A stretch of 64,000 nucleotides of DNA from Escherichia coli (GTDB lineage: Bacteria > Pseudomonadota > Gammaproteobacteria > Enterobacterales > Enterobacteriaceae), in the NCBI RefSeq assembly GCF_048403405.1, contig NZ_CP183129.1; one strand, written 5' to 3'. The notes beneath the pieces were generated by a model, which did not search any database, had not been told where the DNA came from, and saw only the letters and a program-made list of their open reading frames with translations. The position numbers and the translations under genes were made by a program. Positions 16,540-18,432 of this stretch are shown here, piece by piece (the first letter of the stretch is position 1; every line of letters begins with the position of its first letter).

Positions 16540-17736
16540 TTACAGAAATGGTAAAGAAGGCATAACTCCCCGAGAAATACCGGCTAAGAAGCCTTTATCT
16601 GGTTGTTCTTCTTTATTGATTAAAGGAAGGTCATCCAAATCGCCCAGCAAATACGTATTTTTTGCCTGCCAGTCAATCATCCATATTTTCAACAGTGGAT
16701 AAGCCAGACCGCCCGTAATCCCGGATATCACCACCAACGCACACATGCGATAAAGCATACCGTGGTACGTTAAAGTTGAGCGAAAACGAATACGCCCATC
16801 ATTCAGTGACAGGTTGCTCATAAAATGATTTCGCAACGACACCGTTAAATAACTGGTGCTAACAGCAATCCCAAAATAATAAATTAACTGCGCGATTATC
16901 ATTTTACGTTGCATTTCCATAAATTGCTGTAAATTCTCAATATCATCATTTGCATACCCAGAACTATCATACTCATTTAATATTTGTTCGAAGATAATAT
17001 AACCAGCAACAGCGAGAAAAGGTAATAAAGCTAAAAATGCGAGGATGGCATATTTTATACAATACGCAGTATCTAATTTCACCTTGAAACGATGTATACC
17101 GAAACTGGTATTGCTCCAGAGAAAACTCATTACCAGACTATATAAAGTACCATTAAAAATACCAATGGAAACAATACCAACTATTGTCATCAGAACCACA
17201 GATATAATAACGCTACTTGAACTATTGGCATGTAGCATCTTTGTCGAGATAAAGAAAACAGTCCCCATCCCAACGGCCATTAAAATCGGCAAGAAAAAGG
17301 TCACCCACCAGAACCCTTTCATAGAGCAATTAAAACTAAATCTTACGCCGTTGAGACTGGTCATCAAGGCCTGATAACGCAGTCCTTTTGCTGCCATAAA
17401 TATAAGCAAAACCAACAGTGACAAAGTCAAAACACAGCCAACAAGCGGCATATCTGCTGACACTGTCATTAAGATTGCGAAATAGAAAAAAACAAAAACA
17501 AGACAACTAAAAAAAACATTCCCACCGGTAATTCCATAAGAAAATCGTTGTCCGTTAACTTCCATATTAGCATAGAGATAACGCTTACATTTCATTAATG
17601 CCCATGGTAAATAGATACCTAGCGTTATAATCGTTAACAACACATTCACCACACAAATAAGAAAATATCTCTCACCTGTACCATGAAAAACAAACGAATG
17701 GGACGGAACATCCATTTCATTAATAACTTGAGCCAT
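16540..17736 (-). CDS. yjgN: Inner-membrane protein of unknown function (DUF898-type)
   Basis: ORF 16540-17763; start set at the second in-frame Met (398 aa); very hydrophobic and AT-rich. Confidence 0.75.
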   Translation of the reverse strand: MAQVINEMDVPSHSFVFHGTGERYFLICVVNVLLTIITLGIYLPWALMKCKRYLYANMEVNGQRFSYGITGGNVFFSCLVFVFFYFAILMTVSADMPLVGCVLTLSLLVLLIFMAAKGLRYQALMTSLNGVRFSFNCSMKGFWWVTFFLPILMAVGMGTVFFISTKMLHANSSSSVIISVVLMTIVGIVSIGIFNGTLYSLVMSFLWSNTSFGIHRFKVKLDTAYCIKYAILAFLALLPFLAVAGYIIFEQILNEYDSSGYANDDIENLQQFMEMQRKMIIAQLIYYFGIAVSTSYLTVSLRNHFMSNLSLNDGRIRFRSTLTYHGMLYRMCALVVISGITGGLAYPLLKIWMIDWQAKNTYLLGDLDDLPLINKEEQPDKGFLAGISRGVMPSLPFL

Positions 17737-17928
17737 AAAAATTCCCTGAATTAAAAAATCCATTGATATAATTTATAGATACAGACAGTAAAATGTTCTG
17801 CCACGTTACAATACTCTTATCAGTAATAGGCTGGCAAAAACTTTATTGCTTTATAAGATGCTTGCGCACGTAAGAAGAGAGTGGTATTAAACAAATGTAT
17901 AATTACTTTATTTTTATTGGGTTAAACT

Positions 17929-18432
17929 ATGAATAACATTGCGCCGCAATCACCTGTAATGCGTCGCCTGACGCTGCAGGATAATCCTGCTATTGCCCGC
18001 GTCATTCGTCAGGTATCCGCCGAATACGGTCTTACCGCTGATAAAGGCTACACCGTCGCCGATCCGAATCTTGACGAGCTGTATCAAGTGTATAGTCAGC
18101 CTGGCCATGCATATTGGGTGGTTGAGTACGAGGGTGAAGTGGTCGGCGGCGGTGGGATTGCGCCATTAACCGGGAGTGAGTCGGACATTTGCGAACTGCA
18201 AAAGATGTATTTTCTTCCGGCTATTCGCGGTAAAGGGCTAGCGAAAAAACTGGCCGTAATGGCGATGGAGCAGGCACGAGAGATGGGCTTCAAACGCTGC
18301 TATCTGGAAACGACCGCTTTTTTAAAGGAAGCCATTGCGCTTTATGAGCATTTGGGCTTTGAGCATATCGACTATGCGCTTGGCTGCACGGGCCATGTCG
18401 ATTGTGAAGTGCGGATGCTACGCGAACTCTAA
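17929..18432 (+). CDS. yjgM: GNAT-family N-acetyltransferase
   Basis: 167-aa ORF, assigned GNAT on the acetyl-CoA-binding region around [13 protein letters not shown] and genomic position. Confidence 0.85.

Follow-up and report, generated by a model that had tools for sequence, protein, structure and literature searches.

The valS-yjgN-yjgM-rraB locus

We analyzed a 64-kb stretch of an Escherichia coli chromosome (the window) in which the genes valS, yjgN (minus strand), yjgM (plus strand) and rraB follow one another. valS, with its stop at 16484, is convergent with yjgN (16540-17736, minus strand), which is annotated as yjgN in RefSeq, matches Pfam accession PF05987 at 1.7e-48 and represents the allele that we call type A. 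A 192-bp spacer (17737-17928, GC 0.29) with back-to-back promoters separates yjgN from yjgM (also oatA; 17929-18432, plus strand), which encodes a 167-aa GNAT acyltransferase (Pfam accession PF00583, 2e-19). rraB (18478-18894, minus strand) is convergent with yjgM. Open reading frames, Pfam matches and RefSeq records thus bear out the gene identities, coordinates and divergent orientation proposed in a first-pass annotation of this DNA, and the spacer agrees with the 190-bp divergent promoter region that it described.

The pair is already known: K-12 yjgN (b4257) and yjgM (b4256) in RefSeq match the window in genes, order and orientation. Since both are annotated K-12 genes, one with published enzymology, the pair as such opens no new question. 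Between K-12 BW25113 and the window, the yjgN block defined below is 97.5% identical. K-12, C9 and Nissle carry a REP-like insertion of ~130 bp between yjgM and rraB that the window lacks, and the position of K-12 yjgL is occupied in the window by a yjgL-like ORF of 555 aa.

The first-pass annotation referred to an AT-rich pair, which is accurate for yjgN (GC 0.376) and inaccurate for yjgM, whose GC of 0.52 exceeds the window mean (0.507). yjgN ranks in the lowest 3.3% of 1197-bp segments of the 64 kb for GC content. Its silent sites deviate as well, with a GC3 of 0.37 compared to 0.54-0.66 in neighbor genes (valS has a GC of 0.55 and a GC3 of 0.66). In every genus examined, yjgN GC is 5-18 points under that of its neighbors, and a simple model of recent acquisition with later amelioration is therefore an inadequate explanation of its composition.

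Hairpin energies and U-tracts identify a terminator common to the convergent genes at each end of the pair. The left terminator (16500-16537, stem 16506-16531), common to valS and yjgN, has hairpin energies of -24.8 and -20.9 kcal/mol on the two strands (z -5.7 and -3.4). Its U-tract is UUUUUU (6 U) on the valS side and an interrupted UUUU on the yjgN side, making it weaker for yjgN; the stem sequence is identical between the two haplotypes described below. The right terminator (18434-18467), common to yjgM and rraB, has energies of -18.2 and -16.2 kcal/mol (z -5.5 and -4.2), with 7 U on the rraB side and UUUU on the yjgM side, making it weaker for yjgM. As for the strong bidirectional terminators proposed earlier, the hairpins are significant on both strands at both ends, but the U-tract is complete on only one strand in each case. 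Convergent E. coli genes commonly have a common hairpin, so bracketing by hairpins does not set this pair apart. An Rfam scan of 16300-19100 gave only sub-threshold chance matches on the terminator.

The spacer was recovered in K-12 genomic SELEX as a binding site of the RNA polymerase sigma-70 holoenzyme and carries an H-NS flag (PMC3946193). A consensus scan detects a candidate sigma-70 promoter for yjgN (TTGCCA-18-TATTGT, 17808-17837, minus strand), and identical hexamers are given for yjgN in PMC3946193. This candidate is not kept between yjgN types, and the spacer around it varies by type and genus. Conservation within the spacer is seen only at the yjgM-proximal promoter (17862-17890, plus strand), which we infer from phylogenetic footprinting. 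It would consist of a -35 element TTGCGC (17862-17867), a 17-nt gap and an extended -10 element TGgTATTAA (17882-17890). TTGC and TG.TATTA are invariant in all 15 aligned upstream sequences from 12 genera, two of which lack yjgN. This footprint defines an extended -10, sigma-70 promoter conserved ahead of yjgM/oatA, ~40 bp 5' of the ATG, from which yjgM would be transcribed on its own. The gene has been termed monocistronic (PMC6199490).

The earlier description of the pair as being of unknown function is outdated for yjgM. YjgM scores 70.4 bits against PF00583 (cut-off 20.7) and is 80% identical in amino acids to the syntenic Salmonella enterica protein, both being 167 aa long. The Salmonella gene lies near valS, between a DUF898 gene and rraB/argI. 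Sequence and synteny make yjgM orthologous to Salmonella oatA. Salmonella OatA (formerly YjgM) was shown biochemically to be an O-acetylserine N-alpha-acetyltransferase that makes N,O-diacetylserine from O-acetylserine and increases expression of the cys regulon (PMC6277577). This biochemistry comes from the Salmonella enzyme only, and the window YjgM is likened to it by sequence. A second activity is ascribed to E. coli YjgM itself: Zhuang et al. 2024 (Cell Rep 43:114161), as relayed in passages of PMC11929287 and PMC12372871, named it a crotonyltransferase, and the first of these sources gives lysine crotonylation of PmrA as the reaction.

Two yjgN haplotypes in a variable slot

We identified two haplotypes of this locus in complete E. 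coli genomes. Type A, found in the window and in K-12, is present in 4629 genomes and type B in 796. Together they account for 5425 of 5426 genomes, an 85:15 split. Type A and type B YjgN proteins are 42% identical. The block that separates the haplotypes spans 16485-17985, with an identity to type B of 32-73% inside and 97-100% outside. Its breakpoints, at ~16485-16540 and ~17975-17990, are found against every type B strain and against other Escherichia species. The exchanged unit of ~1.45 kb comprises yjgN, the spacer and the first ~17 yjgM codons, and the N-terminus of YjgM goes with the haplotype.

Type B is also present in E. albertii, E. whittamii and cryptic clades. It has a dS of 0.15-0.44, consistent with flanking genes, and Salmonella YjgN is 64% identical to it. 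Type B is most likely ancestral within Escherichia. The dS within type A is 0.040, compared to 0.09-0.20 in its flanks, which indicates that type A is a younger allele class. The closest relative of type A is found in Superficieibacter (64%). A search of 5.8 billion proteins found no donor above 64-65% amino acid identity, so we infer the import of type A without tracing it to a source.

tRNA genes, an integrase and flanking direct repeats were not found at the locus, and the neighbors are housekeeping genes. Exchange of the block is best explained by homologous recombination, and type A most likely entered E. coli in this way. valS and yjgM would have served as homology arms, and type A would have taken the place of ~1.45 kb: the ancestral type B yjgN, the adjoining spacer and the 5' end of yjgM (~17 codons). 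yjgN would thus be a clean 1.45-kb xenologous replacement in a housekeeping neighborhood. A plasmid search found no real carriage of yjgN; the matches were for the most part either records of Mb size, which are likely chromosomes deposited as plasmids, or distant homologues.

The dimorphism resembles cases in E. coli where homologous recombination has swapped alleles of a chromosomal segment, such as the argI-tabA-bdcAR / arc-island haplotypes (ST95, ST131), in having sharp breakpoints in conserved flanks and two haplotypes that segregate within sequence types. It differs from ordinary allelic divergence in that a core unit of just ~1.45 kb encodes proteins that are 42% identical. yjgM and yjgN have been listed among the 'two-variant' genes of pangenome studies (PMC8545132; bioRxiv 10.64898/2025.12.08.692488), both of which give them unexplained. 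The type A/type B split confounds 'gain/loss' calls in such analyses.

The content of the slot between valS and yjgM also varies among related genera. Five of eight further lineages sampled carry yjgM without yjgN, and yjgM lies beside valS with yjgN absent in Klebsiella aerogenes, Buttiauxella, Cedecea and Citrobacter sp. R56. In Lelliottia the slot is taken up by a T6SS effector/immunity pair of colicin-M-like type (PMC11148199). Phytobacter has two tandem DUF898 genes in the slot, one from each of two deep clades (I and II). Escherichia holds three highly divergent YjgN types (A, B and an E. fergusonii type). The YjgN and ValS trees are incongruent, with Citrobacter and Escherichia each falling in three sub-lineages. 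Of the features of a horizontally acquired, H-NS-bound islet, deviant base composition, variable content among relatives and a host-incongruent phylogeny are thus found here, and mobility signatures are not.

The Phytobacter pair raises the possibility that types A and B go back to an ancient tandem duplication, with different paralogues lost in different genomes. We consider this very unlikely. The difference between the types extends over the spacer and ~17 yjgM codons, with one sharp breakpoint per side, which rules out deletion of single copies from a tandem pair. Each genome was counted once (4629 + 796 = 5425), and types A and B are both clade I forms, unlike the Phytobacter pair, which joins clade I with clade II. 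The low dS within type A points to a young allele class.

The YjgN protein and its selection regime

YjgN is a predicted inner-membrane protein of the DUF898 family (PF05987; 165.9 bits against a cut-off of 28, residues 13-370). From the annotated start it comprises 398 aa, with a GRAVY of +0.69 and at least eight hydrophobic segments, in line with the very hydrophobic product described by the first-pass annotation. We took the ATG at 17736 as the start and rejected an in-frame ATG upstream of it (17763): the N-termini of homologues coincide with the former, and only the former is preceded by a Shine-Dalgarno-like AGGGA. NCBIfam contained no YjgN family.

An AF2 model of YjgN (pLDDT 87.5) predicts five tandem units, each consisting of a beta-hairpin and a helical hairpin. 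Alignments between units by hhalign detected internal repeats with up to 99.1% probability (E 6e-19). The two faces of the model carry 13 and 1 lysine plus arginine residues, and by the positive-inside rule applied to this model the conserved beta-hairpin face is probably cytoplasmic. YjgN has GxYxPW turn motifs and the repeat architecture in common with the wider DUF898 family. Variability is highest at the predicted periplasmic ends and in the long transmembrane hairpins. The model matched no solved structure significantly, transporters included, and no viral fold.

Purifying selection acts on YjgN. Whole-gene dN/dS is 0.25 in type A and 0.14 in type B, and falls to 0.06-0.11 when the beta-hairpin face and the motif hairpins are considered by themselves. 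No structural class reaches a within-type dN/dS of 1; values lie at 0.06-0.42 except for 0.82 in the short tails, where substitutions are few. Extreme rate acceleration was rejected as the origin of the 30-64% identities among YjgN proteins, since within-lineage comparisons reveal just moderately relaxed purifying selection. The depth of YjgN divergence reflects old allele lineages and replacement.

Several observations are nonetheless compatible with yjgN being silenced, decaying and no longer functional. Besides its AT-richness and its place in an H-NS-flagged stretch, the gene has a gene-wide dN/dS far above that of neighbor genes. In some strains of E. coli and Shigella sonnei, yjgN or its locus is disrupted by IS elements, and one locus (L037) has a split yjgN. 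Moreover, yjgN::tet serves as a linked marker in strain construction, implying that yjgN is dispensable (PMC9544173). The constraint on the conserved face, the motifs kept across the DUF898 family, the confident structure prediction and the presence at the DNA level of at least 80% of one or other block in 5390 of 5425 genomes all argue against decay, which we regard as highly improbable. We instead regard yjgN as an accessory gene in a variable, H-NS-flagged slot, non-essential yet under purifying selection.

A role in conflict is another possibility. YjgN could be an inner-membrane receptor that phage, colicin or CDI toxins exploit, or an orphan immunity-like protein, with frequency-dependent selection maintaining and shuffling its deep allele lineages. 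The three divergent types within Escherichia, the disagreement between the YjgN and ValS trees, the variable periplasmic ends and transmembrane hairpins, and the effector/immunity pair in the Lelliottia slot are consistent with this proposal. It is nonetheless unlikely: no structural class has a within-type dN/dS of 1 or more, and the model resembles no viral fold. PADLOC and PHROG searches with types A, B and the fergusonii type gave no match. The locus also has no adjacent toxin ORF, besides the missing plasmid carriage, tRNA, integrase and flanking repeats noted above.

Gene neighborhoods of yjgN and other DUF898 genes

We found the yjgN/yjgM pair beyond E. coli, in line with the co-occurrence check that the first-pass annotation had suggested. 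yjgN adjoins yjgM in all ~40 enterobacterial yjgN loci, with divergent orientation and a spacer of ~190-230 bp in nearly all, so co-occurrence is not confined to E. coli. This adjacency, together with an exchanged block that includes the yjgM promoter and 5' end, makes some coupling between the genes possible. The proposal of an insulated two-gene unit finds partial support: the genes are adjacent at these loci, but some lineages have yjgM without yjgN. Co-occurrence of yjgN and yjgM is positional and facultative.

Outside Enterobacteriaceae, DUF898 genes have a different neighbor. At 34 of 34 non-enterobacterial loci where this could be called, the gene directly after DUF898 encodes an M48 metalloprotease that has a DUF7092 domain. 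The two genes are adjacent or overlapping, and such pairs are found in other Proteobacteria and in Bacteroidota. A YjgM-like GNAT gene is beside DUF898 in none of ~40 non-enterobacterial loci. Co-occurrence beyond what common ancestry of the locus would give, as expected of a functionally coupled pair, is thus not seen. The M48/DUF7092 gene, in turn, was found neither in the 64-kb window nor in the enterobacterial loci fetched; in E. coli, yjgN directly meets the valS terminator.

These neighborhoods bear on whether yjgN and yjgM form a functional module, in which YjgN would transport or sense O-acetylserine or N,O-diacetylserine and both genes would be co-regulated from the spacer. Divergent adjacency in nearly all enterobacterial yjgN loci and the joint exchange of yjgN with the yjgM promoter and 5' codons fit such a module. 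The lineages with yjgM and no yjgN, a yjgM promoter that is invariant whether yjgN is present or absent, and the association of DUF898 with M48 and not with YjgM-like genes argue against it, as does the lack of a significant structural match to transporters. OatA was also characterized in Salmonella without yjgN, to which that work made no reference (PMC6277577). We therefore consider a module improbable. Instead, yjgN and yjgM are likely two independent monocistronic genes that are neighbors by chance, type A having been imported and YjgN being an orphan DUF898 protein.

The family context suggests that the partner of a DUF898 protein is the membrane-anchored M48 zinc protease whose gene directly follows. 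We treat the downstream M48 gene as a DUF898 trait on the basis of our own observations and not as a curated criterion, and the suggested partnership draws on distant relatives at 22-31% identity, with no direct bearing on an orphan such as YjgN. Enterobacterial YjgN would then be an orphan that has lost its M48 partner and, as a best guess, still serves as a scaffold or adaptor in the membrane, with the conserved beta-hairpin face as its site of action. PADLOC gave no match for the M48 partner proteins.

A more far-reaching proposal combines these ideas: YjgN as an orphan membrane subunit of a widespread DUF898-M48 protease system, and the valS-yjgM slot as a small hot spot for cargo of inter-strain conflict. 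We consider this unlikely; it would imply that the slot exchanges YjgN lineages (A, B, fergusonii-type and clade II) and T6SS effector/immunity genes among Enterobacteriaceae. The type A/type B dimorphism would then be selectable, for example through sensitivity to a membrane-targeting toxin or phage.

Literature on DUF898, COG4269, DUF7092 and PF05987 is essentially empty, and we found no description of the DUF898-M48 pairing in searchable literature. The family comprises ~6,900 clusters at 50% identity and has no solved structure. Its strict genomic partner, the M48/DUF7092 protease, provides a concrete handle on DUF898 function.

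The yjgN–yjgM locus and its adjacency

The region is 100% identical to the chromosome of E. coli strain TUM14771. Gene order is pepA, holC, valS (13629-16484, plus strand), yjgN (16540-17736, minus; Pfam DUF898, accession PF05987, 1.7e-48), yjgM (17929-18432, plus; Pfam GNAT family, 2e-19), rraB (18478-18894, minus), argI/argF (19056-20060, plus) and then an AT-rich hypothetical open reading frame (ORF) of 555 aa. The first-pass annotation described yjgN and yjgM as a divergent, AT-rich pair of unknown function, insulated by strong bidirectional terminators. This description of the locus is correct except in the wording ‘AT-rich pair’ and in terminator symmetry. 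yjgN is indeed AT-rich (GC 0.376 versus 0.55 for valS) and encodes a hydrophobic protein (GRAVY +0.69), and the start codons of the divergent genes are separated by 192 bp (GC 0.29), close to the 190 bp first given; yjgM, at GC 0.52, is not AT-rich. GC at the three codon positions of yjgN is 0.41/0.35/0.37, so that AT-richness extends to silent sites and is more than a by-product of hydrophobic amino acids. Within the 64 kb, 3.3% of 1197-bp windows are as AT-rich as yjgN. A third AT-rich patch lies at about 58200-60000 (GC below 0.40 over 1.2 kb).

Hairpins at 16506-16531 (valS/yjgN) and 18434-18467 (yjgM/rraB) are the sole strong short-range inverted repeats of the region. Both fold well on both strands (z-scores −3.4 to −5.7), yet each has a full U-tract on one strand only, the left for valS and the right for rraB; folding is thus bidirectional but the terminators are not symmetric. 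The yjgM-rraB interval (18432-18478) carries a REP/BIME-like insertion of ~130 bp in K-12, C9, Nissle, E. albertii and Escherichia sp. MOD1-EC7003; the insertion is absent from the window strain, M217 and E. whittamii (compared at loci L082 4889-5032 and L002 4516-4691). The 555-aa ORF (20118-21785, minus, GC 0.32) is yjgL-like and had no match in Pfam, NCBIfam or PADLOC. Its length and frame integrity vary among strains: K-12 has a 604-aa-class yjgL, and elsewhere the gene is frameshifted or annotated ‘DNA-binding protein’.

The label ‘unknown function’ does not hold for yjgM. The Salmonella orthologue, 80% identical to the window protein and in the same genomic place, was characterised and renamed OatA by VanDrisse and Escalante-Semerena; it acetylates O-acetylserine at its alpha-amino group, yielding N,O-diacetylserine, and its overexpression raises cys-regulon transcription (PMC6277577). 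For E. coli YjgM, reviews cite a lysine crotonyltransferase activity that targets PmrA (Zhuang et al. 2024, Cell Rep 43:114161). The gene has been called monocistronic (Christensen et al., PMC6199490).

We located ValS, YjgM, RraB and ArgI in 79 loci with YjgN relatives (one genome per species, among the matches listed). The pairing extends beyond E. coli: yjgN lies between valS and divergent yjgM in all ~36 enterobacterial loci among these matches, usually with an AT-rich spacer of 177-250 bp. In Mangrovibacter, yjgN and valS stand 1.2 kb apart (L026 7174-8401), with a repeated element and no convincing ORF between them. We then sampled in reverse, choosing eight further lineages through YjgM orthologues. 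yjgN was present in three (Salmonella, E. fergusonii and Pseudescherichia), and yjgM directly follows valS in Klebsiella aerogenes, Buttiauxella, Cedecea and Citrobacter sp. R56. In Lelliottia sp. WAP21 (L096 1925-3291), yjgN is replaced by DUF3289 and DUF943 genes, a pair described as encoding a T6SS effector resembling colicin M plus its immunity protein (PMC11148199).

An alignment of sequences upstream of yjgM (15 sequences, 12 genera) contains an invariant putative promoter, TTGC...TGnTATTA (17862-17867 and 17882-17890), that is kept with or without yjgN; the half of the spacer nearer to yjgN shows no conservation. A consensus scan placed a candidate yjgN promoter, TTGCCA-18-TATTGT, at 17837-17808 (minus), and Shimada et al. 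give the same hexamers for yjgN, with in vitro binding of RNA polymerase sigma-70 holoenzyme and an H-NS flag in the spacer (PMC3946193). No YjgM-like protein neighbours the DUF898 gene in any of ~40 loci outside Enterobacteriaceae. The proposed two-gene unit is therefore only partly supported: adjacency is conserved across enterobacterial yjgN loci, yet we found no evidence of functional coupling. Because yjgN is optional in the valS-yjgM slot, the yjgM promoter is invariant and the association ends at the family boundary, the adjacency is conserved synteny of a facultative gene beside a fixed one, not evidence of a module. The pair is a real observation of an already known object.

Two types of the yjgN block in E. 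coli

Among complete E. coli genomes, about 15% had no alignment over yjgN. In strain C9, YjgN has 395 aa and shares just 42% identity with its counterpart in the window. Searching with the two blocks separately assigned 4629 genomes to type A (including the window and K-12) and 796 to type B (including C9 and Nissle 1917), together 5425 of 5426 complete genomes. In sliding windows, identity to type B drops from 97-100% to 32-73% at about 16485/16540 and recovers abruptly at about 17985; comparisons with four B strains and with three other species of Escherichia all place the breakpoints at these positions. Besides yjgN and the spacer, the block takes in the first ~17 codons of yjgM, and the YjgM N-terminus is type-specific: MNVVASPALRLRKLTVA in type B and a different 17 residues in type A. 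Pangenome studies list yjgM, argI and tabA as ‘two different orthologs’ in ST95 and yjgN as ‘gained’ by clade C in ST131, in neither case with an explanation.

The other sampled Escherichia (E. albertii, E. whittamii and isolates MOD1-EC7003 and E1V33) are all B-like, with 85-93% mutual identity and synonymous divergence (0.15-0.44) equal to or below that of flanking genes. Type B shares 64% identity with YjgN of Salmonella; the closest relative of type A, from Superficieibacter, is also at 64%. Within type A, dS is 0.040, versus 0.091 for valS, 0.105 for argI and 0.195 for yjgM. The simplest history suggested by these comparisons is that type B is ancestral to Escherichia and that type A replaced it in one E. 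coli lineage and then spread. Type A would have come from an unsampled enterobacterial donor through homologous recombination, and the window's yjgN allele was probably imported. Type switching at the slot is recurrent: E. fergusonii has a third YjgN type (L092 3153-4328) that reaches no more than 49% identity to any sequence sampled, Phytobacter carries two DUF898 genes in tandem, one from each of two deep enterobacterial clades (L010 5938-8566, L016 6001-8582), and Citrobacter species divide among three YjgN sub-lineages. The locus is most likely a fixed gene for a characterised acyltransferase beside a replaceable, H-NS-flagged orphan gene for a DUF898 membrane protein.

YjgN structure, family and constraint

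The DUF898 family has 6902 representatives at 50% identity, and we found nothing on it in the searchable literature. An AF2 model of YjgN (38-sequence alignment) is confident (pLDDT 87.5, pTM 0.83) and consists of five tandem repeats of a unit in which a helical hairpin follows a beta-hairpin. Profile-profile comparison of units 1 and 5 confirmed the repeat (99.1% probability, E 6e-19). K+R residues number 13 on the beta-hairpin side and 1 on the other, which suggests that the beta-sheet and both termini of the modelled protein are cytoplasmic. We found no resemblance of the model to solved structures or viral proteins.

Outside Enterobacteriaceae, an M48 metalloprotease gene follows DUF898 in all 34 loci with a callable same-strand downstream gene (among L039-L081); it overlaps the DUF898 stop codon or begins no more than about 20 nt from it. 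These proteases have a soluble N-terminal domain (a DUF7092 match in 28 of the 34), a single hydrophobic segment around residues 90-120 and HExxH at about 225; PDB 3c37 and BepA are the nearest matches to their protease domain. A search of the literature returned no description of this pairing, and the partner gene was found neither in the 64-kb window nor within 6 kb of any enterobacterial yjgN. Any biochemical role that we infer for YjgN would draw on the family's strict partnership with M48 proteases.

Gene-wide dN/dS of yjgN is 0.25 among type A sequences and 0.14 among those of type B (valS, 0.007-0.009). By structural class it is 0.06-0.11 in beta-hairpins and motif hairpins, 0.15-0.38 in long transmembrane hairpins and 0.26-0.29 at periplasmic ends; no class exceeds 1, and we found no signature of positive diversifying selection. 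Conservation across 28 enterobacterial sequences is highest in GxYxPW turns and beta-hairpins and lowest in periplasmic turns. Together these patterns indicate a protein that, judged from its substitutions, is functional but loosely constrained.

Several observations point to yjgN being dispensable. ISKpn26 and IS1 break yjgN in some E. coli strains (L090 3500-5377; block-search matches H13 and H40), and for Shigella sonnei, IS21 and IS1 insertions are listed in the interval separating yjgN from yjgM (PMC12795559). yjgN::tet serves as a linked marker in strain building, and the Keio yjgN mutant scored as a weak hit in a dauer screen in C. elegans. yjgN is also split in L037, a contig labelled ‘Chryseobacterium sp. 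18061’ that is clearly enterobacterial (ValS 94%). Contamination or mislabelling likely explains this contig, as it does L027, a 301-bp ‘Caballeronia’ contig with 97% identity to E. coli yjgN.
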